A DNA stretch of 64,000 nt, taken from IMG/VR virus record IMGVR_UViG_3300025875_000005, positions 1 to 64,000 of that record, one strand, 5' to 3'. The DNA is from a virus. Positions 336 to 63,999 of the stretch are shown piece by piece. The notes below the pieces were generated by a model. That model worked only from the letters and a program-made list of their open reading frames with translations. It did no database searches and was not told where the DNA came from. The position numbers and the translations under genes were made by a program. Numbering within the stretch: position 1 is the first letter of the stretch; each line of letters opens with the position of its first letter.

Positions 336-430
336 TTCGCCACTCCTTGGCTTACTTCGTTTTTGCTGCCCCCCAGATATACACCCAACCTGGGGGATTC
401 GTCAAGAGACTTCTGCAATCAGTTGCCGAT

Positions 431-601
431 TTAGTTCTCCTCTCGGACGCACACCCAGAGGTTCTTCTCGGCCTTCTCCCAGATCTCTTGCCCGGTCCCC
501 TTGCCAGCCCCGAGAGCGTGGATTCCGTTGGGGTGAAGCTCGCAGCCCCGAGCAAGAATCTCTTCGGTGGTGAGGCGGGTCTCAACAGTGGGGGTCTTCA
601 T
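431..601 (-). CDS. hypothetical early protein (56 aa, MKTPTVETRL...), below the ORF-track cut-off
   Basis: CCAAGGAGTG RBS at 608-617, ATG at 601, TAA at 431-433. Confidence 0.6.
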   Translation of the reverse strand: MKTPTVETRLTTEEILARGCELHPNGIHALGAGKGTGQEIWEKAEKNLWVCVREEN

Positions 602-684
602 TGTGCCACTCCTTGGCTTGGGGCGGGGTTTCTTCCCTGCCCACGAAAAGCACTATGCTCCACCCTCTAGGGTTCGTCAAGGCC

Positions 685-1185
685 TCATTTCACTTCTTGC
701 ACTTTGGCAATCGCCTTGTAGATCCCATCCGCCACCCAACCGTCATGCCCTTCCGGCTTACACCTCTGGAAGTGATGCACCAACTCATGCGTGATTGAGG
801 AGTAGAACTCCCCGTCCCCACCCCAGTTCGAATAGGGGAGCCGGATGACAGGGTAGGCACAGGCGTACTCTCCTTGAACGTAGTTGCCAGTCTCCTTGCT
901 CACGAAGCTCCCAGTCTCGTGGTCTACGTTCACCTGAATCTGGATGACGAGCCCCCCGAGGTCGGCAATCATCTTCTCCTTGTCCCATCCAAGCTCAGAC
1001 TCGAAGGCATCAATCGAGCGGAGGAGGATCGCATCCAGCCCCTCACAGTCATTCGACCCGTTGAGCCGAGTCCGGTGAGCCGTCACGCACCCACCTTCAG
1101 GTGGAACCATCCAGGGCTTCCACTCGACTTCAGGGGAGCCGCCACAAGCGGTGAGGAGGATTATCGCCAGAGAGAGGAATCTCAT
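685..1185 (-). CDS. putative lipoprotein with HExxH zincin-like motif
   Basis: Signal peptide with lipobox LTA-C; HELVHH motif near C-terminus. Confidence 0.6.
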   Translation of the reverse strand: MRFLSLAIILLTACGGSPEVEWKPWMVPPEGGCVTAHRTRLNGSNDCEGLDAILLRSIDAFESELGWDKEKMIADLGGLVIQIQVNVDHETGSFVSKETGNYVQGEYACAYPVIRLPYSNWGGDGEFYSSITHELVHHFQRCKPEGHDGWVADGIYKAIAKVQEVK

Positions 1186-1217
1186 GCCCTGACTCTATAC
1201 CCTCCTTCCCTAGTTCG

Positions 1218-1430
1218 TCAAGGACTTTGTTTCCACCTCTCGCATTTGCACCCTGACTCGTGGCACTTGTCCAGGAAAGACCCGGTGCGAGTAGGTTGAC
1301 TGTGGGCGTCTACTCCGTGCCTGCACTCACACAGTGCAGCGGGGTCAAAGCAACAGCACTCGCATTTCAGGTCCTTGCAGACACCTGTGTGGTAGTGGTG
1401 CCCTCCATTGTGGCCGCACTTGCACATCAT
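1218..1430 (-). CDS. small Cys/His-rich zinc-binding protein
   Basis: Two CxC(G/R)H..H..C..CxC repeats. Confidence 0.5.
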   Translation of the reverse strand: MMCKCGHNGGHHYHTGVCKDLKCECCCFDPAALCECRHGVDAHSQPTRTGSFLDKCHESGCKCERWKQSP

Positions 1431-1663
1431 AGGGTGCCCACCTTTTGGAAGCGCCAGTCATGCCAGTAGGTGTCGTTCTCTTCCAGCCACACCCCAGCGG
1501 TCAGACCTTGGTTCCTCTGCACGGTATAGAGGGCCCCAAGCTTCAATTGGCGCTTGGCGAGTAGGTTCTTGGGGGAGAATTCAGCGGGCTCCACGTTGAT
1601 GCACATCAGCACGTCCCCACGCTTGAGCTTAGTCATCGGCACTCCAGATAGGGATGGGGTCAC
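1427..1663 (-). CDS. hypothetical protein
   Basis: ORF coupled to neighbours. Confidence 0.45.
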   Translation of the reverse strand: MTPSLSGVPMTKLKRGDVLMCINVEPAEFSPKNLLAKRQLKLGALYTVQRNQGLTAGVWLEENDTYWHDWRFQKVGTL

Positions 1664-2129: not shown

Positions 2130-2135
2130 CAGGTG

Positions 2136-3171: not shown

Positions 3172-3602
3172 TTCCCACTCCTTGGAAGGTGGCGGGGTTT
3201 CTTCCCAACCACGAAAGAGAAGATACACCCCCTCTCCCCAGTTCGTCAAGGCCCTTCTGCAATCAGTTGCGGATTTTGAGGATGACCGTCAGCTTCCCGT
3301 AGAGCGTTACTCTCGGGCCTGGACCTATACGCCCGTCCCAGAGCAGTCCCACGAGGGGGAAGTACGTCCGTGGGGGGAGGTGGAGAGTGAAGGTGCCACG
3401 ATACCCAGCCCTGTAGAGGCTGAGCATGTAGCTCTTCAAGGTCTTCTCTTCAGATCTCATTGCGGGCGGGGGCATGGGCAGGACAAAAGGCCTCTCCCTT
3501 CTTGGCCGCCCGCTCACAGGGCCTCTGAAGCCAGGGCTTGTACTTCGAATTCGTCTTCACCCAGGCTTCGCAGATGTAAACCTTCCTGTGGTCGAGCTTC
3601 AT

Positions 3603-4311: not shown

Positions 4312-4336
4312 GCGTTCTCCGGTGCAATTGGTTGCG

Positions 4337-8784: not shown

Positions 8785-8850
8785 AGAACTGAGTCTGCAC
8801 TCAGTTGCAGAAGGCTTCTTCATAAACCTCCCACTCCTTGGGCTAAATAG

Positions 8851-11098: not shown

Positions 11099-11786
11099 GC
11101 GAGGCCACGATATCGAGCATTACCTGCTGAGCCTTGCCCCCTGAGTAAAGCTCTTTCTGCGAGGTTCCTGACTCCAGGTGGGTCGAGATTTCCACCTTGC
11201 GTTTGATCTTGATGGCCCCCGTCCTCACCAGGAGATTCACCTTCTCAGACTCAATGGCTTTGAGGGTATTGATGGCTGCAATGAGGTCTGCCCGGTCTTC
11301 CTTCTGGTTACCCAGGGCCGCAATCAGTTGCAGAGATCGGTTGCTCGCGAACTCCAGCTTATCGAAAGCCTGAGCCACCATGCCCACCACCCCAACCTCC
11401 CCCAGGGCGTCCACACTGGCCTCAAGGTGCATCCTCTTGAGCTTGGTATAGGTGGCAGTGGAGACACAGAGAACTCGGCACACGAGGTCCATCGGGGCCC
11501 CCATGTAGAGGAGCCTTCCGAAGTCTTGCCGGAGGTCAGGGTCGTTGATGTCTACCGCGTCTGCGTTCGTGCGGGACTTGATGGCCCCCGAGGCAATGAG
11601 CTTGTTGATGGACTCCTTGATGTCCACGCGCTCCCGCTCACGCTCCCGGCTCATCAGCCTGGAGTCTTCCTTGTTGCCGCTGGGGGTCGTCTTGGGGCTC
11701 GTGAAGGAGAGGGGCTTGCCATCCACCTCACTCGCCTTCTTGATTTCGATCTCATCTTCCTGAGACTCCGGAGGGGTTGGTTCCAT
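11049..11786 (-). CDS. probable terminase small subunit
   Basis: Immediately upstream of terL; HTH-like segment plus helical region; start re-assigned to MEPTPP. Confidence 0.55.
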   Translation of the reverse strand: MEPTPPESQEDEIEIKKASEVDGKPLSFTSPKTTPSGNKEDSRLMSRERERERVDIKESINKLIASGAIKSRTNADAVDINDPDLRQDFGRLLYMGAPMDLVCRVLCVSTATYTKLKRMHLEASVDALGEVGVVGMVAQAFDKLEFASNRSLQLIAALGNQKEDRADLIAAINTLKAIESEKVNLLVRTGAIKIKRKVEISTHLESGTSQKELYSGGKAQQVMLDIVASLGDINESDEDDDSSQA

Positions 11787-12055: not shown

Positions 12056-12125
12056 GGCCCCCTGATACTATCCCGAGGGCCCACAGACCTACAACTAGAG
12101 CGCTTCAGTGCAACCAGTTGCACTC

Positions 12126-14280: not shown

Positions 14281-14694
14281 TCATTTTCCTTTCAACATCT
14301 GTTGCAGATAGGGGGTAGAGGCAATGCATTCGTCAGTGTGGGCGGGGAGGCACTCCCAGCACAGAGGACAGGGCAGGTTGTTACCGTAGATGGGTACAGG
14401 AAGAGCCGCTCTCAAAGACCCATGGAAGGCTTTGATGGCCTCCTTGAGTCTCTGCTCTTCCTTAGCCCCCACAACCATCTCTTCGTGAGCCTTGAGGGTT
14501 GCTCGCTTCCACTTCTCCCGGTCACTCCGGAGGTCTGCAACTGATTGCGCTTTGAAGACCATAGCCTCCTTGAAGAGTCGCAGGTCTTCCCGAGTATGGA
14601 GGAGGTCTGCTTCCAGGCAGGCTCTGCACGCTTTGGGACCATGAGGACAGGTCACGCCTTCTCCTCGGCAAGTACACGACGAGTCCAGGCACAA
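14281..14694 (-). CDS. hypothetical Cys-rich/coiled-coil protein
   Basis: ORF in contiguous array. Confidence 0.5.
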   Translation of the reverse strand: MCLDSSCTCRGEGVTCPHGPKACRACLEADLLHTREDLRLFKEAMVFKAQSVADLRSDREKWKRATLKAHEEMVVGAKEEQRLKEAIKAFHGSLRAALPVPIYGNNLPCPLCWECLPAHTDECIASTPYLQQMLKGK

Positions 14695-15992: not shown

Positions 15993-16216
15993 TTGTCACC
16001 GGCCTTGGGATTCTGCTTCTCCCATTGAGAGGCAGCTTGCTCCAAGAGAATCTCAATCACGGGGGAGAGCTTTTTGTAGCCTGACACCCGCATGATGTGC
16101 TCAAGGCGAGCCACCAACTCAGCGTTGAGGTAGACGGATTTGCTCACACCCTCTTTGGGTGGGGGAATCGAGATAGCTAGGTCGTCAGACACTGTGCCCT
16201 CCATGGCAGCCTGCAA
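15989..16216 (-). CDS. ribbon-helix-helix DNA-binding protein (likely start GTG ~16191)
   Basis: SKSVYL strand, NAELVARLEHIM helix, G turn, LSPVIEILLEQA helix. Confidence 0.65.
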   Translation of the reverse strand: MQAAMEGTVSDDLAISIPPPKEGVSKSVYLNAELVARLEHIMRVSGYKKLSPVIEILLEQAASQWEKQNPKAGDK

Positions 16217-16237
16217 CTGAGTGCAGAATCTTGAGAG

Positions 16238-17358: not shown

Positions 17359-17585
17359 GCGGCTTGGTCCTCAACCAGCGTCAGAGTGATCTCACCCTCA
17401 AGAAGCTTGGCCATCTTCGCAGCGTAGGCCTTGTTCTCGGCTGCCTGATTGAGGCGCTGACTCCGCGCGTAGAACTCCTCAATCATCGGGGCCTGAACGC
17501 GGAGGTCACTCTTCAGAAGATCCTTCTTGGGCTTCTCGCTCACAGAGGCTCCTTCGCTGGGTACTGGTTTAAGGGTAGCACGCAA
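17355..17585 (-). CDS. hypothetical protein ending ...EDQAA
   Basis: GTGA overlap with sspB-like gene. Confidence 0.45.
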   Translation of the reverse strand: MRATLKPVPSEGASVSEKPKKDLLKSDLRVQAPMIEEFYARSQRLNQAAENKAYAAKMAKLLEGEITLTLVEDQAA

Positions 17586-17828
17586 TCAAGTGCAGAGGGA
17601 GCGAAGCTCCGTGTGGCAGTCACGGCAAATGACGGTCACAGAGCCCTGAGGAGTGACGAACACGGGGTTGCCGCATTCGTTGTCACACTCAGGAAGGTTC
17701 TTTTTCTTCTCTTCCTGGACCTTCGCTCGCCACTTGTTCCGGGCAAGGAGGTTCTGAGAAAAGAACAGGTCATAATTGTGTTGGGACTTGTCAGCGTCAT
17801 CAGCCATGACTACCTCTTGCTCAAGCAA
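17586..17828 (-). CDS. small C4 zinc-finger protein (DksA/TraR-like layout)
   Basis: MADDADKSQ N-terminus, CxxxC...CRDC. Confidence 0.5.
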   Translation of the reverse strand: MLEQEVVMADDADKSQHNYDLFFSQNLLARNKWRAKVQEEKKKNLPECDNECGNPVFVTPQGSVTVICRDCHTELRSLCT

Positions 17829-18359: not shown

Positions 18360-18460
18360 GGTGCCTCCGTTAACTGGAGGGCACACTATCCGTATTTCAA
18401 ATCTGAAAGCAAATTCCAGGATAAGCAGTGTACGTCTTTATCCTGCAACCAGTTGCGGTC

Positions 18461-36264: not shown

Positions 36265-36274
36265 GAGCTACTCC

Positions 36275-39415: not shown

Positions 39416-39425
39416 CCACTACTCC

Positions 39426-43575: not shown

Positions 43576-44054
43576 GCTTTGAAGAGCCCGGGTGAGTTGG
43601 CAGGGGTGTACTTACCCTTGGGGAAGACCATGTTGAGGATGTCATCCTCGAAGCCCAACGTCGCCTGCACTGACTGGGCGTTATACATGGCGCTCAGCAT
43701 GTAGAACTCGAAGGGCCCTGCCTCCACCGTGTTGGGGGAAGAGGCAAGGACCACATCCATCACGATCTTCACCCGTCCTGTGAGGTTCCGGATGGCATCC
43801 GTGATGCTCCTGTCCACGTTGTCCACAGTGAGGTTGACCTGTGGAACCACGTCAGGAGCGTCCTCTGGAAGGCTTAGCTCGAAGAAGCTGGCCTTGAAGG
43901 TCCCCTCATGGCGTTCCACATCCCGGTTGTTCTGAACGACCAGGAGGGGCTCGTCAAAGGAGGGGTGCTCAAGGCGCAAGCACATGAGGAAAATCTCCTC
44001 AGTCTCTTGCGCAAACATTGCCCTGAACGCTGGAATCGAGAGGTTGCGACTCAT
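43572..44054 (-). CDS. DUF1833-like minor tail protein (gpL analogue)
   Basis: L.HPSF, FELSLP, LTVDNVDR, YTP..SPGLF. Confidence 0.8.
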   Translation of the reverse strand: MSRNLSIPAFRAMFAQETEEIFLMCLRLEHPSFDEPLLVVQNNRDVERHEGTFKASFFELSLPEDAPDVVPQVNLTVDNVDRSITDAIRNLTGRVKIVMDVVLASSPNTVEAGPFEFYMLSAMYNAQSVQATLGFEDDILNMVFPKGKYTPANSPGLFKA

Positions 44055-47000: not shown

Positions 47001-47842
47001 GTGGAAGGCATGACCAGCACGCCCACGCCTGTGTACTCGTTCCAGGGGGCTGTCACCTCAACGTAGCCACCACCGAGGTCCGTGAGGACGCACTCAGCAA
47101 GAACGTCCTGACCCTCAGTATTCGTGGAGCCGTCAGTGTTCTTCGTGAGGATGCTGTTGCGGGCGTACTTGTAGGAACTCGTGAAGGTGATGGCCCCGGT
47201 ATAGGGGTTGCCATCTGCCTTCGTGAACCGGACGATCTTGCTGGCGTACTGGGGCTTCGTAGCCGGGAGGAACTCCAGATGGTCCGGGAGAGCTACCGGA
47301 GGGAGAGCCGCAACCAGATTATGGGTGCCTCCCCGGGGATAGACCTGATTCGTACCCGTGGAGGTAACGGTATAGGTCCAGCTGGTGTTGTCGGGAAGGG
47401 CTGCCCGGAGAACCGAGAAGAGCACGGTACCAGCTGCATCCACGATGGAGCCACCACCCACGGCAGTGAGCGAGGGGTTGGCTCCCGTGGTGTTGTTTGT
47501 GGCCGAAATCATGGCCGCGCTGGGCCCGATGCTCACGTTGGGGAGGGCGTTGGCCTCCGTAGACCCGTACATCCAGAAGGCAGGGCCATCAGAGACGAAC
47601 TGGGCCCGGGGCTTGATGTCCGTGTTGGAGGTATCCGGAACCACCAAGTAGCCCACTCCCACGGTGTCCGTGGAAGGGACCGTCACCTCAACGTTGCCCC
47701 CGCCCTTATCTACGGCAGAGCATTGGGTGATGACGTTGTTCCCGTTGCTGTCTCGACCATAGCGGTAACTGGTCGAAAAGGTGATGGCCCCCGTGTAAGG
47801 CGAGCCATCCAGCTTCGTGAACGTGATTGTCTTTTTACCCAC
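44051..47842 (-). CDS. distal tail (gpM-like) protein fused to two polysaccharide-lyase-like domains and three novel repeats
   Basis: C-terminal WP..LP...IRS.TETGPGKVRRRFT..PFRW.D; two RAE(L/V)..Q.H..YWKLGFYR domains. Confidence 0.75.
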   Translation of the reverse strand: MGKKTITFTKLDGSPYTGAITFSTSYRYGRDSNGNNVITQCSAVDKGGGNVEVTVPSTDTVGVGYLVVPDTSNTDIKPRAQFVSDGPAFWMYGSTEANALPNVSIGPSAAMISATNNTTGANPSLTAVGGGSIVDAAGTVLFSVLRAALPDNTSWTYTVTSTGTNQVYPRGGTHNLVAALPPVALPDHLEFLPATKPQYASKIVRFTKADGNPYTGAITFTSSYKYARNSILTKNTDGSTNTEGQDVLAECVLTDLGGGYVEVTAPWNEYTGVGVLVMPSTGISDITPKALMVSFGPFSWIYGSTNDNGLPNVSITPSMLTITGNDLGGAENTFVVTPAGSIKNGASSSATNLFTVVRATLPTRSSWAWKVTPVGTNKLFPKSDSRDVRARIIYPPAAETKLSWSGDFRTKDFSQWGRKQFGNGSADTSILPDNIDDRLLLVKHETYSYQTPYGLLAHPKYGDVHSGGTRAELTAKKVNPDNAPGDTYFYEGDEVWVSWATKFSPDFELSSKWHVFSQAHQIGGTGSPPIAFTINDTNKVCFVVMPDYYDSINSSSEARFWTTTIRPGFWNHFLLHIKWSNNAAVGFVHLIVNGVEVVPLRMSRTMLDVACYWKLGFYRDQSVNVNQTVFHAGFNVYNSDPRETGTEIEPPATLPTGSKVVRFTKADGSPYVGKLAFSSEYRYARDSAGTNVTAQCSVVDLGGGYVQVNTPATDAVGVGYLLVPDTRITDVYPKAMMVNQGPFIWMFGTSETGGLPTKNLTPSTVTIVATNPTGASQTLPGVGAGSIVDGANTVALANVLRAALPDANSWNCVITPTGVNGITSVTPKADSRDVQTRIVYPAEHTGKLRWKGDFSSLDFSQWNAQFGDQLRVDANGDGIADTNIQILPDGVNDRLVLVKNEFYNAQATRGLKASPKQFDLHSGGTRAEVVAKSSGALGGSTGQGWFYEGDEVWISWATKFAPDYQTHSKWHVFSQAHQTLDLGNGGPMISFIVNGSTIAFSVMNGVYDKTADPSQAKFWTKTIRPGFWDHYLLHIKWSQNMAVGFVELWVNGVNVVPKRFHNNLDTDGIAYWKLGFYRSQDINVEQTVFHSNFNVYNSDPRVFTVTPGGGGGDPVDPPDEPPVDPEDPVDPPDPTVPTAPLYQIQYAFWPTGLPAPYAASKPVYAPADNSIRSSTETGPGKVRRRFTGRYEKLSFQLELKQDQLDIFQHFYWNIIQEVMPFRWIDLRTGLPCKYRFAGPPQMTYLAGYEGNGWWAVTVELETA

Positions 47843-47891
47843 GGGGTACCCTCACCTGATTTCTGCAACTGGTTGCACTCGGAGCCTACCA

Positions 47892-50800
47892 TTAACCTCG
47901 GTTGGAGCCCTTACGAGAGACGCCGAAAGTCTGGGAAACGGCCTGTCCAACGGCTCCTCCCTTGCGGATGTCTCCGGCGACCCGACCGATGATGATGTCG
48001 ATGATCTCCGTACCGTCAGAACCCTTGCGACGTTCCTGGGTAGCTTCCTGCCCAGAATTGTTGATGACGTTCACCTGAGTACCGCCACCACTCGCGTCAA
48101 CCATACCACCGCTTGCGAAGTTGCGGCGACCTGCACGAGGGGCCTGTCGAAGCCCATTGATGTTGTCGAAGAAGCCCTTGCCGTACCGGTCCACTGCCGC
48201 TGCCCGGATGACGTACTCACCATTGGAGAGGCGAGCGGCAATGCTGTCCGAGGTAGCGGTACCGGGGCCAGAAACATGGCCACCGCTAGCATACCCATTG
48301 GGGTTGATCCGGTTGTTAGGAACGTACTTCCCACTGATGTGGGGGGACTTGTTGATATTGGGTCCCGAATTCATCAAGTACCCCATACCCGCGCTGGCCA
48401 GCATACCGATAAGCTCAATCAGCTTGGCCGCTGCCAATTCAGCCGCCATCTTCTGAACCATCTCAGCAAACGAAGCCCCAATCTGCTTGAACTTCGCCAT
48501 GAGGGGGCTGAAGGCCTTAGTCATCTCATCCACGCGCTTCTTGTACTCCTCCGTACCCTTCTCAAGGCCTGCTGCCTTCACCTGCTTGAGGAACTCCGCA
48601 TCTCCAGACTGGAGACCCTTGAGGGAGAGAACTGCCTCCAGGGTACGACGCTCTTCCTCCAACTTGCGTTCAATGTCTTCCCGATTCTTCTCCACCAATT
48701 CAGCGGTAGAGCCGCTGTCCATGATCTTTGAGAGACCCTCACCCGCGAAGGTCTGGATGTTTCGCTGGGCCTGGATGGCGAACTGAGAGAGGGCAGACTC
48801 TGACTGCTTGGTCTCACGGGCGAGCTTCTTGTGCTTCTCCGTGATCTCGTCCAGGAAGCGCTGGTACTCCATGCTGCTGAGGCCTTTACCCGTCTCCTTG
48901 GCCTTCTTCTGAAGCTCTTCCAGCTGCTTCACCTCAGCCGCAAAGGCCTTGGCAAGGGGGTCCGTCCGGGTGTCCCGAGCCTCACCCATGAACTCGTTGA
49001 TGTCATCGCGAGCTTCCTTCTGCTTCTTCTTAACCTCCTCTTCCTTGGCCTTCTTCTTTGCCGCTGCTAGCTTGATAGTCGCTTCAATAGCCTCATCAAT
49101 GCGCTGATTGACGATAGCAATGGCCTCAGCCTCACCCTTGGCGAGACGCTGGCCTTCCTGCACCCGGGCATTCACCTCAGAGCGCTTCTGTTCAAGGGTC
49201 GCCAGGGCTGCATTCAATTCCCGGACTTCATCAGGGACACCCTCAGCTTCTGCGTTCTTGTCCGTAATGCTGCCTTCAAGGCCCTCAGCATCTTTCTGGA
49301 GCTTGGCAAGGCGAGCCGCGTCCTCAGCCCGACGCTTCTCAGCGGCAGCCCGGACCTTTGCAGCGGCTTCCTTCTTCTTCATAAGCTCTTCGTGGAGCTT
49401 TTCAGAAGCAATACGGGCGTCATATCGCTCGGTAAGGTCCGCGACGAGTTTGGATTCCTTTGCAATGGAGGCAGCCAAGCCCTTAGTGATGCCCTCGATT
49501 TGAACCTTGTTCCGGATGTAGAGGTCATCCTGCTCATTCAGACCCGTCATCTGGTCTTTGAGCTTGAGAATGTCGTCAGCCGCCCTCTGCCTCAGGACAG
49601 TGATGGCATTCTCAGCCTTGATCTGAGCTTCTCTGACCTGCAACTGACGCTCTTCCACCAGTTCATCGATGTCCGTTTTGTTGCCCGTGACCTTGCGGTT
49701 CGATTTTTCAATCTTGGCAAGGGCAGCTGTCTGCTCATTGAGCTTGGTGTAAGTCTCACCCGTCTTGCCCATGGTCTCCAGCTGTTGACGGTCAAGGTCC
49801 AGAATCTGCTGCTTCTGGTTTGCCTCAATCTTGGTCTGCTGAACGCGATCCAGGGCAATCTTGAGACGCTTCTCTTCAGCCACGATCTCCCGAGTTACAT
49901 CGCTAAGCTCAATGTTGGAGTCAATTCCAATGGGCCGACCATCCTTGAGGATGTCAGCACGCTTTGCTCGAAGCTCAGCCAACCGCTTGGAAGCGTCTGC
50001 GTACTCCTTCTCCACAGCATCCGTCTGTGACTTGGCGCTACTGATTGCGCCTTCAATATCGGCACCCTGAGCCGCCTTGAGCTTCTCCAGGGCCTCCGTG
50101 AGGGATTCAGTCTTGTCCTCAAGCTCAGTCGTGGCTGTGGCAAGGTAGTAGATCCCTGCCCCTGCCGCGAGGAAGACCGCTGGCCATCCGCCAATCAGGG
50201 CGAAGAGACCCTTGCCCACCTTGGAGAGAAGCCCGCCTGCCGTAGCCGCAAGGCTGACACCCTTGCTCATGGCGGTAGAGGCCACTGCTGCCTCAGCACT
50301 GGCAGCTGCCACAGCCTGGGAGGAAGCCGTAGCAGCCAAGTTGGCCGCCGCACCCTCACGGACTGCGATGTTCAGGGCCTTCTGGGCTGCAAGGCGCTCA
50401 ATCTCGATTGCAGCAAGACGCTCTTCAGCCTTGGTAAGCCCAACCGTGGAGGTCATGAGGCCACGACGTGCCTGGAGACCCCGGACTTCCTCTGCTGCCA
50501 TCTTCTGCTTCTCAAGCACCAGTGTGAGGCTTGCTGCTGCCTCTTGACGAGTCACAGCCAGAGAAGCGGCCTTCACTTCAGCCTCAGCTGCTGCTGCCTT
50601 GGCTGAATTCAGGGTGGCCTCGGTGAGGGCAACCTTGGCCGTGCGTGCTTCCAGCGTAACCCCAAGCTCAGCCCCCAGCCCCGCCACAGCCTTGGCGGTA
50701 GCCTCGTAGGCCTTGTTGGCAGCCATGCCGAACCCAACCAGGGCCGCCCCACCCAGACCGATGGTGGAGACGAATGGGGCGATGTCCTTGCCTGACTCTG

Positions 50801-51950
50801 CGATGGTGTTCAGAAGCTTTCCAAGCTCGCCAATGCCCTTGGCTGCTGCTTCTTCGAAGATGCCACCGGAGAGGGCGCTTTTGAGTCGGAAGAGAGAGGT
50901 CTCCAGCCGACCAATGCTTGCGTTGATACCCTCTGAGGCAGCCGCTACGTCCTCCTGCTTGAACGTTCCACGAAGGGCCCCAGCGATCTGAGGGGCATAC
51001 TTCTTCACGTCAAGGAGACCCTTCTCCAGCTGCTCCTGGAAGTTGAAGGTCGGGTCATCCTTGTTGGCCGCCTTCACGAGGTCGCGGAAATTCTCGTAGG
51101 CACCCGGGATGGCTTGGTCAAGCTGGAGCTTCAAGTCCTGGGTACGAACCACGCCCGCACCCATGATTTGCTCAAGGGCGTACATCGCTCGGCCTGCCCT
51201 CTGGGTATCCAGATGGAAGACCGTGATGGCTTCAGACGCCGCACGGAAGATGTCATGGCTCTCGGTCGTGGTCAGGTTCGCCGTCTTGGCAGACACGGCA
51301 AAGCCCGCGTAGGCCTGAGCGGTCTGACCGAGAGAGACACCCAACCGGTCCGAGAGGCCTGCAACGAACTCAAGCTCCTTAGCCGCGCCTGCCTGGGAAC
51401 CGGCTGCTGCCTGGAGGGTGAAGTTGATTTGCTGGACCTGCTTCTGGGTATCAATGAGGTCCATCGTTGTGCTCTTCAGAGCACTGAAGGCAAGGAAGCC
51501 TCCCGCGAAGGTCTTCACCTGATTCATCGTTGCAGAGAGGGAGGCAAGCTGTGCCTCAAGCGCAGAGGTATCCGCCGCTGCCTTCACTGCCTCTTTGCCC
51601 ACTGCCTGAAGGGCAGGAGCGGCCTTGGAAGCCGAGATCTCCGCCATGCTGATCTTGGCCTGCCCCGCGCTGGTCGCGAGCCTCTGGAGGCCAGCCACAG
51701 CCCTTCCAGCGTCGTTCCCCATCTTGGAGAAGAGGTCACCCGGATTGACCTTCTGAAGGTCGTTGAGGGAGGTCTTAACTACGTTGACCTGCTGCCCCAG
51801 AGCATCAATTCCAGAGACTGCCCCCTTGGAGCTTGAGGTCAGATCTGCAAAGAGCTTGTCGAAATCCTTGCGGGCGTCGTTGATAGCGGCCTTGGCCTGC
51901 CCGTTCTCAACCGTCAGGCGAATCTTCACATCTGGATTTTTTCCGGACAT
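47892..51950 (-). CDS. tape measure protein
   Basis: ~1350 aa Ala-rich coiled coil; N-terminal tape-measure motif; GGHVSGPGTATSDSI.ARLSNGEYV. Confidence 0.92.
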   Translation of the reverse strand: MSGKNPDVKIRLTVENGQAKAAINDARKDFDKLFADLTSSSKGAVSGIDALGQQVNVVKTSLNDLQKVNPGDLFSKMGNDAGRAVAGLQRLATSAGQAKISMAEISASKAAPALQAVGKEAVKAAADTSALEAQLASLSATMNQVKTFAGGFLAFSALKSTTMDLIDTQKQVQQINFTLQAAAGSQAGAAKELEFVAGLSDRLGVSLGQTAQAYAGFAVSAKTANLTTTESHDIFRAASEAITVFHLDTQRAGRAMYALEQIMGAGVVRTQDLKLQLDQAIPGAYENFRDLVKAANKDDPTFNFQEQLEKGLLDVKKYAPQIAGALRGTFKQEDVAAASEGINASIGRLETSLFRLKSALSGGIFEEAAAKGIGELGKLLNTIAESGKDIAPFVSTIGLGGAALVGFGMAANKAYEATAKAVAGLGAELGVTLEARTAKVALTEATLNSAKAAAAEAEVKAASLAVTRQEAAASLTLVLEKQKMAAEEVRGLQARRGLMTSTVGLTKAEERLAAIEIERLAAQKALNIAVREGAAANLAATASSQAVAAASAEAAVASTAMSKGVSLAATAGGLLSKVGKGLFALIGGWPAVFLAAGAGIYYLATATTELEDKTESLTEALEKLKAAQGADIEGAISSAKSQTDAVEKEYADASKRLAELRAKRADILKDGRPIGIDSNIELSDVTREIVAEEKRLKIALDRVQQTKIEANQKQQILDLDRQQLETMGKTGETYTKLNEQTAALAKIEKSNRKVTGNKTDIDELVEERQLQVREAQIKAENAITVLRQRAADDILKLKDQMTGLNEQDDLYIRNKVQIEGITKGLAASIAKESKLVADLTERYDARIASEKLHEELMKKKEAAAKVRAAAEKRRAEDAARLAKLQKDAEGLEGSITDKNAEAEGVPDEVRELNAALATLEQKRSEVNARVQEGQRLAKGEAEAIAIVNQRIDEAIEATIKLAAAKKKAKEEEVKKKQKEARDDINEFMGEARDTRTDPLAKAFAAEVKQLEELQKKAKETGKGLSSMEYQRFLDEITEKHKKLARETKQSESALSQFAIQAQRNIQTFAGEGLSKIMDSGSTAELVEKNREDIERKLEEERRTLEAVLSLKGLQSGDAEFLKQVKAAGLEKGTEEYKKRVDEMTKAFSPLMAKFKQIGASFAEMVQKMAAELAAAKLIELIGMLASAGMGYLMNSGPNINKSPHISGKYVPNNRINPNGYASGGHVSGPGTATSDSIAARLSNGEYVIRAAAVDRYGKGFFDNINGLRQAPRAGRRNFASGGMVDASGGGTQVNVINNSGQEATQERRKGSDGTEIIDIIIGRVAGDIRKGGAVGQAVSQTFGVSRKGSNRG

Positions 51951-51966
51951 AGCGCTCCCTTGACCG

Positions 51967-52005
51967 AAAAATAACACCCTTCCAGCCTATGTAGCTAGAA
52001 GGGTG
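51967..52005 (-). terminator. intrinsic terminator/attenuator before tape measure gene
   Basis: CACCCTTCTAGC-loop-GCTGGAAGGGTG followed by TTATTTTT. Confidence 0.7.
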
Positions 52006-52009
52006 CGGG

Positions 52010-52692
52010 TTAATCGGAATGGAGCGCCTTCTGAAACTCCTTGAATGACTTGTCTTTTGCGTGGGCCGCTACCCGAAGGAGGATCAGGGTGGAGTGAGCT
52101 TCCTCTCTGTGAAGCCCCTCTATGGCCTTCAAGAACAAAATCACTTGGCGGTAGGTGTACCCTCCGATGTCGCTGATGCTGTGTCCGTTTTGGATGAGAC
52201 GTTGGACAGAGAGACTCCAGCCTTGTCCAGCGTTCGTGCGAGGGCGACCAGCACGCTGGCTTGCGCTCTTCCGAGGGCTTTGGGAAGAGTCAGGAAGAAA
52301 AAATCGGCATTCACCACAAGCACCTTGGTGACTACCGCCGCGAACTCCTCAAACTGAAGTTCGTCCAGCTTCTCTGGAGTGCAACCAGTTGCAACCGCCA
52401 TGGCCTCGTAGAAGAGCTTCTGGTCGGACCCCATCAAGGCAGTGAGGTTGAGGTCTCCCGTCTTCTCCATGGATGCCTGGAAAGAGGGCCAGAACTTCTC
52501 TGCGAGCGGGATAAAGACCTTCAGCTGCCTCATGACCATGGGCCCGATGTGGATGGGGCCCTGGGAGGTATGCAGCGTTTCAGGGTCAGAACCGAAGATC
52601 TCCAAGCCATCCTCAGGGCGAGGCCCCCCCGATTCCTTGGGGGGACCATCCTTGAGTCGTTCCGCTTCCTCTTGCGAGATCTTCTCAGCCAT
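52010..52692 (-). CDS. tail assembly chaperone gpG (52141-52692) and gpGT via -1 frameshift (to 52010)
   Basis: Between tube and TMP; slippery T TTT TTC at 52297-52303; open -1 frame encoding W..LIQNGH..DI.GYT..Q..LFL. Confidence 0.75.
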
Positions 52693-53899: not shown

Positions 53900-54358
53900 C
53901 TAGAGGCCCTGAGTCAATAGGACCGGCAAAGTCCATCGCTGCATCCAAACTACCACACCTTTCTTGGACATAGCGGGGGTCTCCAGAACGAACTCCCATT
54001 TATGCATGGAGGGTCCCTGGGTATCCCGGAGTGTATTCCGGATCTTATCCATGAGGGCAAGTGCCTCGGTCTTGATGGTATCCAGCTGCATTGGGATCAC
54101 ATCGGACTGGTCCTTGAAGATGAGGACCACGTTGATGGAGAGCTTGGCAGAGAGGCCATTGCGTCCAGAGGTCTTGCCCGCTTCCCCCGCGCTTCTCATG
54201 CCCTCGTAGATGACTCCTACGGCAGGAAAGGGGAAAAGCCCGGAGAAAGCAGTCAATTCATCATCCGAAAGGATGTAGAAGCTCTTGCCGCTCAACTCCG
54301 CAACTGATTGCAGCTTGGTAACGACGCTCTTGACTGCATCTTCAGCGATATTGGCCAT
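53900..54358 (-). CDS. tail terminator/completion protein
   Basis: PAVGVIY motif, position before tube gene. Confidence 0.6.
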   Translation of the reverse strand: MANIAEDAVKSVVTKLQSVAELSGKSFYILSDDELTAFSGLFPFPAVGVIYEGMRSAGEAGKTSGRNGLSAKLSINVVLIFKDQSDVIPMQLDTIKTEALALMDKIRNTLRDTQGPSMHKWEFVLETPAMSKKGVVVWMQRWTLPVLLTQGL

Positions 54359-55871: not shown

Positions 55872-55940
55872 GCACACTCCTTGGGTATGAACTACCTGCA
55901 CTCAATTGCAGAATGCGACTCTAACCTAAGCACTAAGCAC

Positions 55941-57012: not shown

Positions 57013-58359
57013 TTAGCTGTTCTTCTTGTTGCGAGCAACACGTGAGCCCATCAGAGCGCTGTCGTAATAGCCCGTTCCGAACTCGGAACCTTCATCTGCC
57101 TTAGAAACCGCGACCTTAGACGAAGGGTCCCCAATCGGTGCAGGAGCGATGACAGTGCTCTTGACCACCTTCTGGGTTGCATCCGCCTTCTGGACAGCCT
57201 CAGAGACCTGGGTCTTGAGGGTGCTGTTCTCGGTCACCAGGGCCTCAATCTTCTCTCCCTGGGACTTCTGGATGGTCGTGATCTCCGACATCTGACCGCT
57301 GAGCTTGGTGAGCATCTCCAGCACGGGGTCCGGGAGGGCCTCTTCCTTCTTCACAGGGGCCTTCTTCGCCTTCTCCTCATCCGTCTCTTCCTTCACGAAC
57401 GGGGGAGCCTTGCCCTCCTCAGCAACCGGGGCCTCAGTCGTAGGAGCAACCTCCTCCTTGGCCTTCTCCTCTTCCTTCTTCTTGGCTGCCTTCTCCACGG
57501 ACTCCGGGACAGGGGTCTCCGAGGTGATGGCCTCATGCACAGAGGGCGCAGGAGCGTCAGCGGGGGTCTCGACAACCACCACATCAGAGGTCGGGGCAGT
57601 CGCAACCACCTCAACAACCTTCTCTTCGGTCTTCTCAGTGTCGCTCATGACGGTCTCTTCCTTCTTGATGGTTTCGCAATTGGTTGCAGAGGGGGTTGCA
57701 GTCTTGTAAGCCATCTCCCCCAGCTGGGCATTGGCGTAGAATGCCTTGCCCGGGATAGAAGCAACAAGACCCATGACGTGGGCAGTAAAGTCCGCGAGGT
57801 GCCCTTCTGCTGCGAGCTTGGCCTCTTCGAAGGAGGTAGCCGCGTAGACGGACTGGTCAATCACAGAGCGAAGGGCGCTGGAAGCCGCGTAGAAGCCCTC
57901 GGTGTAAGCAGTCGCCCCGAGCTTCTCCGAGAAGGTAGAAAGCTTCTGGCTCCAGGGCTCGAAACCCTTCATGACCACCACCATCTGGTCAGACAGACGA
58001 ACGACGTGACCCTCTTCCGGGGCCTCGCCCTGAGCGAACATGACCGTACCGTCCGCGTTCTCCGTCATGGTATCGACCGAGAAGCCAGCCTTCTTGATGA
58101 CTTCCTTGACTGCATCCAAGTCCGCCGTCTTGTGGACGATAACCGCCCCAACCGAAGGGGCAGCGGGAGCCTCAGGTGCGGTGCTCTCGCCCTTGAGGAT
58201 CTTGGAGAGGAAGCTACGGGGGTTGGTCAAGTCAATCATAGGGGCTCCTTCAGCGGTTTTCTGGATGCGAAAAGGGATCTGGTTCGCAGAACGCGAGACC
58301 AGGGACACAAAATGTGCCTGGGGATCAAGAAGCTTCTTCATCCGAACCTTGATCTTCAT
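57013..58359 (-). CDS. capsid scaffold-like protein
   Basis: N-terminal VSLV.R.AN..PF, E/K/A/P-rich, coiled coil, between protease and MCP. Confidence 0.7.
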   Translation of the reverse strand: MKIKVRMKKLLDPQAHFVSLVSRSANQIPFRIQKTAEGAPMIDLTNPRSFLSKILKGESTAPEAPAAPSVGAVIVHKTADLDAVKEVIKKAGFSVDTMTENADGTVMFAQGEAPEEGHVVRLSDQMVVVMKGFEPWSQKLSTFSEKLGATAYTEGFYAASSALRSVIDQSVYAATSFEEAKLAAEGHLADFTAHVMGLVASIPGKAFYANAQLGEMAYKTATPSATNCETIKKEETVMSDTEKTEEKVVEVVATAPTSDVVVVETPADAPAPSVHEAITSETPVPESVEKAAKKKEEEKAKEEVAPTTEAPVAEEGKAPPFVKEETDEEKAKKAPVKKEEALPDPVLEMLTKLSGQMSEITTIQKSQGEKIEALVTENSTLKTQVSEAVQKADATQKVVKSTVIAPAPIGDPSSKVAVSKADEGSEFGTGYYDSALMGSRVARNKKNS

Positions 58360-59070: not shown

Positions 59071-59097
59071 CGGAACTCTGCAATCAGTTGCGCTGAC

Positions 59098-60030: not shown

Positions 60031-60035
60031 CTGAG

Positions 60036-60340: not shown

Positions 60341-61218
60341 ATCAAATCTACGCTCATGATGTGCCGGGTGTAGGTCCCGCTACCCTCGTGGCGGTAACCC
60401 GTGATCTTGTAGCGGGAGTTACGGGGCAGGAGAAGCTCAGACTCGGAGGAGTGATGGGTCCGCTCCTTGTCCTGACCAAGGTAGGCCCCCTTCGCTCCCT
60501 TCTTGACGTTGATCTCCAGCATCACACGCCCCTGCTTCATGAAGCCCCCAGCAACCTCCTTGTCGATGGAGGTAGAGCCGTAGGACTTATCCTTGAACTC
60601 GGTCCCGACCAGCTTCTCGAAGAAGTCAGGCTTGGCCACATCATACTTGTCGAGTCCCCACACCCGCTGGGTCATGGCCCGGTAGGCAACCACGTTGTCA
60701 GGGACTTCCATCTTGTCCAGGGCCTTGTCCAGGGCCTTAACAGAGGCATCCATGCCCTTCTTGGTATGGGGCTGTTGAATCTTCTCGTAGGTAGGGGTGG
60801 GATTCACATGCTCGTTGAGCCGCTTGGAGAAGGAACCCGTGTACGTAACGATATCCCGACGCTCCTTGGGGGTAAGGCTGTCCCACTGCTTCTGGGTAGC
60901 ATCCCGCATGAGGGTATCGCCCACCCCGAGACTGGTCTCGACCGTGGTGCCGTAGACATCGTACTTCTTGTACGGGGGTGGCTCATGGGCCTTCTTGTAG
61001 GCCTCAGATGCCTTTACCTCTGCGAGGTACTCAGCCTTGTCTCGGTCATTGAGCTTCTTGAACTTGCCCCCCCACGAAACTGAATGGGCACCCGGCTTAC
61101 TGGTAAACCGGCCATTCTTGTCGTGGTAGGGGTTAAGCTTCAGGATCTTCGCGTATTCGGGAGGGGACACAGGCAACCTCGAAAGGGACGTGTCCCCTGA
61201 CTTTACGGGGCTCTGCAA
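60337..61218 (-). CDS. ADP-ribosyltransferase, VIP2/C3-like R-S-E clade (start may be GTG 61170)
   Basis: YT...LN, VAYRAM, YGSTS, KGAKGAY, SESELLLPRNSRYKI. Confidence 0.9.
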   Translation of the reverse strand: MQSPVKSGDTSLSRLPVSPPEYAKILKLNPYHDKNGRFTSKPGAHSVSWGGKFKKLNDRDKAEYLAEVKASEAYKKAHEPPPYKKYDVYGTTVETSLGVGDTLMRDATQKQWDSLTPKERRDIVTYTGSFSKRLNEHVNPTPTYEKIQQPHTKKGMDASVKALDKALDKMEVPDNVVAYRAMTQRVWGLDKYDVAKPDFFEKLVGTEFKDKSYGSTSIDKEVAGGFMKQGRVMLEINVKKGAKGAYLGQDKERTHHSSESELLLPRNSRYKITGYRHEGSGTYTRHIMSVDLI

Positions 61219-61234
61219 CTGAGTGCAATTCGAC

Positions 61235-61423: not shown

Positions 61424-61458
61424 AACCCACCTCTTTCTATCCCCTCAGGGACAACTAC

Positions 61459-61488
61459 AATTTACCCCAAACTACCCTAGTTTGTCAA
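61459..61488 (-). promoter_or_regulatory. internal sigma70-like promoter after the zeta-like gene
   Basis: TTGACA-18 bp-TAAATT. Confidence 0.65.
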
Positions 61489-61491
61489 GGA

Positions 61492-62466
61492 TTACTTCTT
61501 CTTGGAGCGCTGGATAAGGACTGGAGAGGCCCCGGAGTTGTCGTAAGCAGACCACTTACTGAAGAGGGGCTTCATCTTGTCGAAGTTGGCCTCGTTGTTC
61601 TTGTTGCCCAGAACCACATCCACGGGAACCAAGCGACCACGCTTGCCCTCACGACCAAGGTAGCGACCCACAGCGCGCTTTGCAGCCTCCTGACGGGGCA
61701 GGTGCATGTAGTGACCCTGAACGTCGTAGCCCTTGGCAGAGAACTGCTTGATGGTCCCAATCATTGAGTCGGACCGGAGGGTGCCGTCAATGACCACGTT
61801 GAGCTTGCGGCGCATCGCCATGGCCTGCACCCGGTCAAGGATGTAGCTGGACTCCTGATGGACCTGAGCGGCATTCCAGCCCTGATACGGGGGGCGAAGG
61901 AGGCCCTTGATGTGGTCAGAGTCCAGGACCATGTGCTTGTCCCCGTCGAACTCCTTGATCTTTCCGTTGGTGAAGGAGGACTTGCCGGAACCACCCCGAC
62001 CACCCAGGACCACCATGGAGGGCTTCTCTCCAGGGGCAGGGGTCGCCTTCTTCACGTCATCCACGTTGAAGATGGAGGCAAGGATCTTGTCATGCAGCGC
62101 CATGCGCTCTGCCGTGTAGACGGTCTCTGCCGGACCTTCCTTGGTGTAGAGCTTGTCGGACCCGTCGAGACCATTGGTCTCCTTGATCTTGTCCGCAATC
62201 TCCTTGCGCTCTGCCTCGGAGAACTTGGAGAGGATGGAGTCAGGGGTGACGTTTGGGTCATCCTTGCTCTTGGCGTAGTCAGCAAGGCTCCCCTTATGAG
62301 GCCCCTCCACGTCCCCGTCATGGCTTCCACCGGTACCACCACTCCCTGCTGAGTCCCCGCCCCCACGACCATTGGCAGGGGCAAACTTGCCGTCCTTGGC
62401 GTGGTAGGGGTTGAACTTGGTGACAACCTCGGCACCCTTCAGAATCTTGGAGTAGTTCTTGGTCAC
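61492..62466 (-). CDS. zeta-toxin-like P-loop kinase with N-terminal extension
   Basis: GGRGGSGKS, DSDHIK, HQESS, VIDGTL, RA..R...GRLVP, YDNSG. Confidence 0.85.
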   Translation of the reverse strand: MTKNYSKILKGAEVVTKFNPYHAKDGKFAPANGRGGGDSAGSGGTGGSHDGDVEGPHKGSLADYAKSKDDPNVTPDSILSKFSEAERKEIADKIKETNGLDGSDKLYTKEGPAETVYTAERMALHDKILASIFNVDDVKKATPAPGEKPSMVVLGGRGGSGKSSFTNGKIKEFDGDKHMVLDSDHIKGLLRPPYQGWNAAQVHQESSYILDRVQAMAMRRKLNVVIDGTLRSDSMIGTIKQFSAKGYDVQGHYMHLPRQEAAKRAVGRYLGREGKRGRLVPVDVVLGNKNNEANFDKMKPLFSKWSAYDNSGASPVLIQRSKKK

Positions 62467-62491
62467 GTTAGCCTCTGCAATTGGTTGCGCT

Positions 62492-62674
62492 CTACTTGGA
62501 GCGGGGCATCCCAGGATACAGAGAGTACACCTCTTCCAGGGTCATATTGAAGCTCTTGAGGAGGAGGTTCTTCACCTCTTCTCGTAGCTCTTTGGAGACT
62601 GGGCCCTTGAAGATGGTGTCCAGGGCTTGGGAAGCGTCCCCATCCTCTACCCGCGTGTTCTTGATTGGCTTCAT
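62492..62674 (-). CDS. small protein downstream of the MuF-like gene
   Basis: ATGA overlap with MuF stop (MKPIKN...). Confidence 0.5.
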   Translation of the reverse strand: MKPIKNTRVEDGDASQALDTIFKGPVSKELREEVKNLLLKSFNMTLEEVYSLYPGMPRSK

Positions 62675-63999
62675 GGGAATGCCGCGAAGAAGACTTCCAT
62701 GACTGCTGCATCCTCGATATCCAGAAGCATTTGGATGCTCCACTTGGCCAGTAGTTGGTCGCCATATGGCAAGAACGCGAGGGCATAGATGCCCTTGGGG
62801 TTGTTCATGTCCAGGATGGCGTTGAGGTTCTGCTGTTCAGTCGGGTCAGAGGGCCAGTGCTTCGCAAGCTCCCCACCCTCCTTCAGAGCTTCCTCGATGT
62901 TCGTCTGGATCTTGATCCACTCCTCCTGATTGGCAGGGACAAAGCCCATCTTGGCGTAGTTGTAGACGCCTGAGCGACCACCCGCCTTGACCACGTAGGA
63001 GTCAGCCTCAAGGAGCTTCGCAAGCTCCACACTCCTCTTCAGGTGCCCTTCCAGAAATCCGGTAGTAGCTCCCGGGCTTGCTCCAATCTCCAGGTAGTTT
63101 CCGTAAAGGGTCTTGCTGAAGTTGTCGTAGACCACCTGCATCTCGACCTGTGAAGTCGGTCCCGCGAGGGGGCCGCTCACCTTGAGCTTGATGGTGTCCT
63201 CATCCCCAATGCCCACCCTCATCTCAAAGGGGGCCTTGGGCTTGATCAAGTCATCGGGAGAGAGGCCCGTGAGCTTGGAGGCAACGGCTGCCGGGGGCTG
63301 GCCAATGGTGCTGTTCCAGAGGTCCAGTTGCTTGGGCGTGATGTTGACCCCGATGGCATCGAACTCCTTGGGGGTCTGGGGCGTCAGGACCCTCTGCTGC
63401 TCCATCTCCTTGCGGGGCTCCCCGATGACCTTCCGACCAGCCACGGCACAGAGCGTCCTGCACAAGGGATGAAAGGGAGGGATGTGGTAGCCCAGTGCGG
63501 TCAAGTCAGCGGCAGACATCTCCCGGAGGGACTTGATGGTCTTGGCGTCCTGCTTGGGCCATGGATGGAGGTTCTTCACGGTCTCAGCATCCTGAGCCTG
63601 GAGAATCCTGTTGATGCTTGAGCGGGCGTCCTCCACCTCGAAGGTCTTCCCATGGGCCACGTAGCGGCAGTAGTGGGAGGTTCGTCCATCCAGGACAGCC
63701 GTGAGTCGGTACTGGGTGACTCCACGGACATCTGCCTCAGCCGTGAAGCCCCACACAGCCAGTCGGGAGCTATGGAGGCTGGAAATCAGCTGGAGGCGAG
63801 CATCTGCATCGCTCTTGAATGACACGAACTCCTTCACGTATCGCTGGCCTTGGTAGAACGTGTCAGCCTTCTTGACCATCTCGGGGTACTGACGGGCTGC
63901 AATCAGTTGCGCCAGGGAGGTATAGGCTGCCTGGAAGGCTGAGACTTCCACATCCCTGAGAAGGGCATCCGCTGCCTGTCCCAGGAGAATCTCGTAGCT
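62671..63999 (-). CDS. MuF/SPP1 gp7-like minor head protein with C-terminal extension (5' truncated by window)
   Basis: AVLDGRTS..CR, PPFHPLCRT; frame open to window edge. Confidence 0.85.
   Translation of the reverse strand, partial: SYEILLGQAADALLRDVEVSAFQAAYTSLAQLIAARQYPEMVKKADTFYQGQRYVKEFVSFKSDADARLQLISSLHSSRLAVWGFTAEADVRGVTQYRLTAVLDGRTSHYCRYVAHGKTFEVEDARSSINRILQAQDAETVKNLHPWPKQDAKTIKSLREMSAADLTALGYHIPPFHPLCRTLCAVAGRKVIGEPRKEMEQQRVLTPQTPKEFDAIGVNITPKQLDLWNSTIGQPPAAVASKLTGLSPDDLIKPKAPFEMRVGIGDEDTIKLKVSGPLAGPTSQVEMQVVYDNFSKTLYGNYLEIGASPGATTGFLEGHLKRSVELAKLLEADSYVVKAGGRSGVYNYAKMGFVPANQEEWIKIQTNIEEALKEGGELAKHWPSDPTEQQNLNAILDMNNPKGIYALAFLPYGDQLLAKWSIQMLLDIEDAAVMEVFFAAFP

Follow-up and report, generated by a model that had tools for sequence, protein, structure and literature searches.

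A regularly spaced near-palindromic site runs through a large siphovirus genome and recurs in phages of seven bacterial genera

Dyad sites arrayed genome-wide on mobile replicons are already known. About a dozen operators for KorB lie on the IncP plasmid RK2, Cluster A mycobacteriophages use two to three dozen stoperators (13-14 bp repressor sites, read by gp71 in phage L5) spread genome-wide to silence the whole temperate phage genome, and the cellular protein Noc keeps both a CTPase domain and a membrane-targeting helix. On RK2, a ParB-family domain of KorB reads a short palindrome (OB) at promoters and at a distance from them, in a role that joins inheritance with global silencing (PMC11790492; PDB 1r71). 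Noc of Bacillus subtilis and the ParB-parS system pair a ParB-family reader with a 14-16 bp palindrome at dozens of chromosome-wide sites, which confer a spatial property rather than control of a single promoter (PMC7383237). Cluster O mycobacteriophages carry more than 30 copies of a 17-bp dyad, TGTTCGG-N3-CCGAACA, whose function is not known; the authors predict a dimeric DNA-binding protein and draw the comparison with stoperators (PMC4351075). Here we describe a lattice of a 14-bp near-palindrome, YGCAMYYRRKTGCR, running through positions 1-64,000 (the window) of the IMG/VR virus record IMGVR_UViG_3300025875_000005, a siphovirus-type phage of 96,898 bp. Its regular spacing, its embedding within genes and its conservation in phages of seven host genera set it apart from the arrays already described.

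For the 14-mer, 100 dinucleotide shuffles of the window predict 0.01 copies; 31 strict copies are present. Three extra copies (at 414, 24680 and 34137) carry a single flanking-base difference and bring the total to about 34, in agreement with the ~35 copies of a palindrome reported in an earlier note on this DNA. That note took the window for the whole genome; the record extends well beyond it, has a 127-bp exact terminal repeat at its ends, and continues the lattice to 52 copies of the 12-bp core across 96.9 kb. At 14 bp, the element has the size of the 13-16 bp palindromic sites of other replicons. A gene call of the whole genome placed 157 of its 158 genes on the minus strand, with 91% of the DNA coding, and PHROG and Pfam scans identify a large siphovirus that encodes TerL, portal, protease, capsid and tail genes, together with ribonucleotide reductase and thymidylate enzymes. 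The window sites are listed below; none is assigned a strand, and matches to Stenotrophomonas phage DLP5, a relative, are marked.

414-427: relaxed flank (TGCAATCAGTTGCC); intergenic, centre 15-17 nt upstream of a -35 box
2334-2347: within a small open reading frame (ORF)
3258-3271: intergenic, centre 15 nt upstream of a -35 box
4323-4336: intergenic, 2 nt past a stop codon
5289-5302: intergenic, 3 nt past a stop codon
6282-6295: intergenic
8796-8809: within a weak small ORF
11319-11332: within a 245-aa gene adjoining TerL; peptide QLIA
12109-12122: intergenic, 5 nt past a stop codon
13569-13582: both half-sites GCACT; within a small ORF
14536-14549: close to the 5' end of a 93-aa ORF
16212-16225: intergenic, ~49 nt downstream of a -35 box
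17581-17594: gene edge
18444-18457: intergenic, 5 nt past a stop codon
21561-21574: within the RuvC-like gene; DLP5 site at same codon position
23082-23095: within the RecA/UvsX-like gene, 34 nt ahead of the stop
24680-24693: relaxed flank; within the MerR-like gene
26091-26104: within the SF2 helicase gene; DLP5 site at same codon position
28987-29000: within a 162-aa gene; DLP5 site at same codon position
32201-32214: within an O-like initiator candidate (409 aa)
34137-34150: relaxed flank; within the AAA ATPase gene
35272-35285: intergenic
40076-40089: in-gene, first of three in a 1267-aa tail gene
41607-41620: in-gene, second of three in the 1267-aa tail gene
43149-43162: in-gene, third of three in the 1267-aa tail gene
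47864-47877: intergenic, separating the two largest tail genes
52380-52393: within a 183-aa tail-region gene
54299-54312: codons 15-18 of a 152-aa gene; DLP5 site at same codon position
55897-55910: intergenic, directly downstream of the major capsid gene; DLP5 site at matching place
57675-57688: within a 448-aa scaffold-like gene
59079-59092: intergenic, in the order stop codon, site, terminator-like hairpin; upstream of the protease gene; DLP5 match
61214-61227: intergenic
62476-62489: intergenic, 4 nt past a stop codon
63898-63911: within the MuF-like gene; DLP5 site no more than 10 nt from the matching position

The copies are over-dispersed, as the earlier note had judged. Over the whole genome the coefficient of variation (CV) of the gaps is 0.51, against 0.98 for random positions, and none of 20,000 simulations was as even (P<5e-5). 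The smallest gap is 790 bp in the window, the value already suggested, and 343 bp in the whole genome. The three longest window gaps (35273-40077, 43150-47865 and 47865-52381), likewise rightly placed over large tail genes, measure 4.5-4.8 kb each and each span one such gene.

The sites are held in place by selection on the DNA itself. Thirty lie within genes, compared with 2.2 (maximum 6) after synonymous-codon shuffling within genes, and they impose the recurring peptides QSVA, QLIA/QLVA and ATxC in three frames, as had been described. Seven of the 13 in-gene sites that could be mapped fall at the same codon in DLP5, between proteins only 35-64% identical: those in the RuvC-like gene, the helicase, the 162-aa and 152-aa genes, MuF, a phosphatase and a PPDK-like kinase. 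Three intergenic sites also occupy matching places in DLP5 (upstream of the protease gene, downstream of the capsid gene and upstream of the portal gene). Because synonymous shuffles lose the sites and their positions are conserved in DLP5, selection acts on them at the DNA level, as the earlier note had inferred. Among the mappable in-gene sites, none was conserved in position in SIO-2 or RcZahn. Two paralogous phosphatase genes (genome 70450 and 72141) each carry a lattice site at a homologous codon, in differing frames, and one of these two sites alone has a DLP5 counterpart.

The stress placed earlier on in-gene copies understated the preference for gaps. About 20 of the 52 sites (~38%) are intergenic, compared with 9% of the DNA, and 15 of these 20 lie no more than 12 nt past a stop codon. 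Intergenic enrichment is 3- to 8-fold in nine of nine genomes analysed. A role as a promoter element was considered and rejected: four lattice sites stand in a fixed relation to a promoter, 15-17 nt upstream of the -35 box, and the others are unrelated to promoters. The promoters themselves are sigma-70-like, of the form cTTGACGAAC-(11-12 nt)-GGGTGTAGAAc, with ~35 copies on the minus strand between window positions 30 and 61488 and genome positions 70119 and 96801. The sense strand has 35 and the opposite one 3, and they are most crowded at 0-6 kb and 86-97 kb, where the small early genes lie. The most frequent 10-mer of the genome, once the lattice and the promoters are set aside, is an extended ribosome-binding word, CCAAGGAGTGGG, with ~27 copies on the minus strand of the whole genome.

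The anatomy of the site points to duplex DNA. The arms GCA..TGC are invariant among this genome's copies; the loose frame GCA-N6-TGC occurs 78 times in the genome, compared with 52 core copies, so about 25 of its occurrences are background. Three half-sites (GCAAC, GCAAT and GCACT) combine freely, the two halves of one site are usually unlike, and all but one of the 52 copies (51) have CA or TG as their two central bases. What had been called a palindrome is therefore symmetric in its arms and free of orientation bias (sense-strand centres are TG in 28 and CA in 23), as stated, but is a near-palindrome rather than a perfect one. A transcript hairpin acting as terminator, processing site or stabiliser might be suspected from the location of nearly all genes on one strand and of many sites just past stop codons, but we regard it as very improbable. 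Across the 52 copies no compensatory changes were found: the flanking pair 0/13 is Watson-Crick in 15 copies only, with the C-A mismatch as the most frequent combination (20/52), and pair 4/9 is broken in 12. The arms would leave a loop of 2-4 nt, the sites show no orientation relative to transcription, and terminator-like hairpins follow 7 of 20 intergenic sites versus 24 of 135 other gene ends, no clear association. The lack of covariation and of orientation bias indicates a duplex-DNA site with two half-sites and no functional orientation, suited to a symmetric binder.

The lattice extends far beyond this genome. Megablast against 50,697 phage records returned no close DNA relative, and a terminase-based scan of IMG/VR found no relative either. 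By polymerase (44-50% identity) the nearest cultured phages are Stenotrophomonas DLP5, DLP3 and Summit, followed by SIO-2-like Vibrio phages and Rhodobacter phage RcZahn. A TGCAA-N4-TTGCA lattice at about one site per 2-4 kb is present in at least ten cultured relatives on seven genera (Stenotrophomonas, Vibrio, Rhodobacter, Rhizobium, Aeromonas, Pseudomonas and Agrobacterium). The TGCAA/TTGCA arms are invariant across these phages, whose GC content ranges from 45 to 61%, and the inner four bases are lineage-specific:

Stenotrophomonas DLP5: 41 copies, inner four bases TCAA
Vibrio SIO-2: 26 copies, TCAA and TTAA
Rhodobacter RcZahn: 26 copies, TCAA and TTAA
Rhodobacter RcTiptonus: 49 copies, TCGA
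Rhizobium RHph_TM16: 25 copies, CATA
Aeromonas HJ05: 28 copies, CCAG and CCGG
Rhizobium L338C: 55 copies, CAGG, CAAG and CATG
Pseudomonas PA_L9: 30 copies, RCGY
Agrobacterium JP1: 33 copies, ACGT or ACAT

Spacing statistics cover the seven relatives from DLP5 to L338C; PA_L9 and JP1 contribute copy counts only. In these seven, Markov controls contain 0.75-4.5 copies, and the gap CV is 0.50-0.68 against ~0.97 (P<=0.007 each); counted over nine genomes, the CV range and the P bound are unchanged. In five IMG/VR fragments, too, a site recurs about every 2-4 kb. Three phages that infect Gram-positive bacteria and have a related capsid protein contain 1, 0 and 0 copies. Exact-word literature searches with twelve variants of the motif returned only primers and unrelated sequences, and among the papers searched none had the motif in a phage context; the DLP3 and Rhodobacter phage papers do not mention it.

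Among described arrays, the Cluster O dyad repeats are the nearest phenomenon. In each of the two, an inverted repeat with invariant arms and a variable centre recurs more than 30 times genome-wide, in coding and non-coding DNA; about one third of the Cluster O repeats are in genes, and they have no meaningful orientation and lie mostly off promoters, a pattern close to that seen here. The likeness is one of kind only, since the sequence is unrelated, the host is actinobacterial and the phage family is another. Cluster O repeats are also denser at one genome end and not evenly spaced, and no specific binder or cross-genus conservation was put forward for them. Stoperators, too, are present in many copies genome-wide, mostly in short intergenic gaps near stop and start codons, and the lattice is likewise enriched in such gaps near stop codons (38% vs 9%). 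They differ in being asymmetric and transcription-oriented, whereas lattice sites are symmetric (28 TG vs 23 CA), often within genes and regularly spaced.

Bacterial genomes were scanned for exact words of the motif, with one genome per species. Most matches were single and at chance level, and motif counts in host genomes were near chance as well: two of them have ~4-5 copies each outside mobile islands. Two clusters emerged. In Paraburkholderia elongata 5N, a ~20-kb region present twice (contig C163, 47.3-67.2 kb, with a copy on C293) has 10 exact and 7 near sites, and in Comamonas testosteroni SWCO2 a contig end (C10, 159-166 kb) has 9. The island sites are of the TGCAATYRATTGCA type, mostly in gaps or weak ORFs of the gene call, and some are paired ~60 bp apart. 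Each island adjoins a P4-type integrase and carries defence-like cargo (ADP-ribosylglycohydrolase, DUF4145, Sel1 and a 1441-aa NOV_C protein); beyond a DraG-like hydrolase and a short stretch at the N-terminus of the scaffold protein, they have nothing in common with the phages. They may be phage satellites that copy the code of a helper.

A separate Paraburkholderia locus (contig C113, 8.3-11.5 kb and 35.0 kb) carries TGCAATCGATTGCA at divergent promoters, in the manner of an ordinary LacI-family operator set; the motif class and the sites of cellular repressors therefore overlap. This bears on the idea that the lattice hijacks or titrates a host LacI-family regulator, as TGCAA-N4-TTGCA is similar to operators of the LacI/PurR/CytR class. 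What we take to be the ideal form of that class is the JP1 version, TGCAAACGTTTGCA, and the case for this idea is a resemblance in sequence only. No match to the LacI-type helix-turn-helix (PF00356) was found in the whole phage genome at E<=10, so that a LacI-type reader would have to be the host's. The arms are invariant over alpha-, beta- and gamma-proteobacterial hosts, which have no single LacI-family regulator in common; the central CG that the class prefers is missing in most lineages; and the near-chance counts in host genomes also argue against it. We therefore rate a borrowed host regulator as improbable.

A reader of the lattice should instead be phage-encoded and conserved, because the arms are the same over three proteobacterial classes and 45-61% GC and host copies are few. 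A tblastn search of all 158 proteins against the seven relatives found 11 genes common to all: TerL, portal, protease, capsid, polymerase, two helicases, primase, the RecA-like protein, the AAA ATPase and a 273-aa unknown. The others are enzymes or virion parts, and on its structural model the 273-aa product appears to be the only one with a fold of the sequence-specific DNA-binding type:

19601-20422, minus strand: candidate lattice-binding protein, 273 aa, phrog_17202; ParB/KorB-like fold in the model; family-wide core gene

The gene has its own promoter at ~20502. It is kept in 10 of 10 lattice-bearing relatives tested; a profile of the family matches PA_L9 and JP1 (E ~1e-16) and has no match in the three capsid-related phages with 0-1 sites. 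Three proteins had been named earlier as possible binders. This one is kept in every lattice lineage, and the other two are not conserved: the RHH gene (15989) was rejected for want of a tblastn match in the seven relatives, and the MerR-like gene (24587) because it matched in 2 of 7 only. A 258-aa core unknown (26405-27181) was also set aside because it resembles a gp32-type single-stranded DNA-binding protein. The widely conserved hypothetical gene at 22666-23043, in the replication block like the last, appears to belong to a Holliday-junction resolvase family, phrog_2002.

An AlphaFold2 model of the candidate (predicted local distance difference test, pLDDT, 82) comprises a disordered basic N-terminus (residues 1-28), a predicted ParB/KorB-like helix-turn-helix domain (~residues 30-160) and a helical C-terminal part. 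In VIA-align the model superimposes on ParB-parS 6s6h (Z 8.2, 125 residues), Spo0J 1vz0 (Z 7.7), KorB-operator 1r71 (Z 7.1), KorB 8qa8 (Z 6.5), SopB (Z 4.7) and VirB (Z 4.4). Structure matches in BFVD, below the family's own members, were DUF3102 and ParB-like proteins, and the ESM Atlas gave the same weak leads. The sequence had no useful match in PDB or Pfam, and Foldseek against PDB gave none at E<=0.001. ParB_N (PF02195), the CTP-binding clamp domain, had no match in the whole 96.9-kb genome at E<=1, whereas control genomes matched. Conservation within the family is highest in the putative helix-turn-helix, F..FV....G...RKA.YL..IY, and in a GW(T/S)K helix that follows it; in other lineages the homologues are extended by long tails rich in Ala, Lys and Pro. 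Seven lineages with non-CG centres retain the Tyr of RKAxYL and three with CG centres have lost it, a pattern that is weak evidence because a single evolutionary event may explain it. The Summit homologue lies at positions 47534-48340 of its record. In DLP3, the candidate homologue gp62 was not detected in the virion proteome (PMC7326821). The homologue of the 234-aa gene upstream of the candidate (window 20507-21211), gp61, has an isoelectric point of 9.0 and was detected by mass spectrometry of the virion (PMC7326821).

KorB and its operators are the nearest mechanistic model. In both cases a short palindrome is repeated round a mobile replicon, with sites at promoters and distant from them; a ParB-family domain reads it on RK2 and a putative one would do so here, and the candidate model aligns to the KorB domain in both structures compared. 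The differences are substantial. Lattice phages have 25-55 sites, evenly spaced and with 24-77% of them inside genes, and KorB is a CTP-dependent sliding clamp that works with KorA and IncC, whereas the candidate is without ParB_N and no partner was found. The likeness to Noc and ParB-parS lies in the putative ParB-family reader, the length of the palindrome, the dozens of sites and their proposed spatial rather than single-promoter character; those systems are cellular, not viral, and their site sequence is unrelated.

On balance, and with moderate confidence, we favour the reading that the sites are duplex docking points for a symmetric, probably dimeric phage protein, most likely the 273-aa product, that gathers the genome. 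Selection would keep the sites spaced roughly evenly so as to cover the whole chromosome. The 273-aa product would recognise lattice DNA such as TGCAATCAATTGCA through its ParB/KorB-type helix-turn-helix domain, and it appears to be without the N-terminal clamp domain that lets ParB and KorB slide from one loading site. Since a clamp-less protein presumably cannot slide, spreading by that route would be impossible and coverage would be hard-wired, at one site per ~2 kb. Bound dimers could then gather a replicating or episomal genome into a single nucleoprotein body, which could serve stable plasmid-like carriage of the prophage and organise or dampen expression in the manner of KorB on RK2. 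A symmetric reader, even coverage, the missing sliding domain and basic tails most likely fit a genome-coating or gathering protein; the dimer, its binding and its biological role are what we infer. The temperate phages DLP5 and DLP3 are maintained as phagemids (PMC5834331, PMC7326821), and VHS1, a relative of SIO-2, persists extrachromosomally (PMC3148565).

Several points weigh against this reading. All lattice phages have ~11 core genes in common, and co-occurrence therefore cannot single out the 273-aa gene. The top VIA-align match of its model is the helical domain of an unrelated Rubisco chaperone (Z 9.6), and Z values below 8-13 are not decisive for helical folds, in which common arrangements recur. 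RcTiptonus keeps the half-site unchanged despite a much-altered putative recognition helix. No ParA-like gene was found among ~60 phage proteins scanned, a set that covers the small genes only in part, and the candidate-reader profile has no match in the P. elongata 5N or C. testosteroni SWCO2 genomes. SIO-2 is presumably a lytic phage, which makes a role confined to lysogeny doubtful. Finally, even spacing suits a self-marking or nuclease-stop function equally well.

The last point leads to a Chi-like self signal, at which a helicase-nuclease or recombination machine of the phage would stop or switch. Phage DNA, with a site every 2 kb in both orientations, would thereby be spared or recombined, and host DNA devoid of sites would be degraded. 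The Chi sites known so far are short and asymmetric and are read in single-stranded form. A palindrome would give an identical word on both strands, usable from either side, and even spacing would limit the length lost before the next site. The phage has a replication-recombination block that comprises, in the PHROG and Pfam scans, a DnaB-like helicase, primase, SF2 helicase, RecA/UvsX-like protein, exonuclease, RuvC-like protein and DNA polymerase I, and the RecA-like, SF2 helicase, exonuclease and RuvC-like genes, with a second resolvase-like gene, are among those most widely kept. Near-chance counts in host genomes agree with such a signal, and satellite-like islands bearing the motif would fit a need in cis. 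Yet separate half-sites would suffice for this purpose, and the arms are always paired at a fixed 4-bp distance; they are palindromic and free of orientation bias, where an asymmetric word with strand bias would be expected. The island sites lie in promoter-like intergenic pairs of regulatory appearance, and no nuclease of such specificity was identified. We consider the Chi-like function unlikely.

Somewhat less credible still is a covalent mark, either sequence-specific nicks, as in phage T5 and phiKMV-like phages, or base modification by a phage enzyme. The replication module is T5-like (the annotators of Summit record T5 matches for polymerase and helicase), and two resolvase-type nucleases are conserved. 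Nearly every site of this genome and of SIO-2 deviates from perfect symmetry, which could direct action to one strand. The asymmetry, however, has no preferred orientation, the sites of DLP5, RcTiptonus and JP1 are largely symmetric, and the genes common to all lineages include no methyltransferase or nickase. Measured against TGCAAT-NN-ATTGCA, 24 of the 26 SIO-2 sites within two mismatches differ at exactly one arm position, and 27 of 38 DLP5 sites match exactly.

One gene cluster was weighed as a site-modifying module. At genome 70116-75015, outside the window, a PPDK-like dikinase without its pyruvate-binding domain is accompanied by two CX5R phosphatase-like proteins and a 350-aa unknown. 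DLP5, SIO-2, RcZahn and RHph_TM16 retain this cluster, and RcTiptonus, HJ05 and L338C lack it. Because these last three bear the lattice, the cluster is not tied to it, and the proposal was rejected.

A wider form of the docking-site reading is one we hold only tentatively, and think doubtful as a whole. The lattice would be a genome-wide address code, kept since before a clade of 80-110 kb phages spread over alpha-, beta- and gamma-proteobacteria and read by a clamp-less ParB-like protein. The Paraburkholderia and Comamonas islands would be integrase-bearing satellites that copy the code, encode no reader themselves and plug into that of a helper for induction, replication or packaging.

If the docking-site reading is true, a virus could subject its entire coding sequence to the demands of a regular grid of docking sites, and that grid could persist while almost all the genes around it diverge. 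In a widespread phage group, a core gene that has had no name gains a testable function, and the system would provide a natural counterpart to the sliding clamps of ParB and KorB. TGCAA-N4-TTGCA every 2-4 kb provides a signature for finding such phages, and possibly their satellites, in metagenomes. Cultured members are available on tractable hosts: Stenotrophomonas DLP3, DLP5 and Summit, Vibrio SIO-2 and VHS1, Pseudomonas Samunavirus, and Rhodobacter RcZahn and RcTiptonus. Some lattice phages are being weighed for therapy, and a genome-wide silencing or carriage system would bear directly on their lifestyle.

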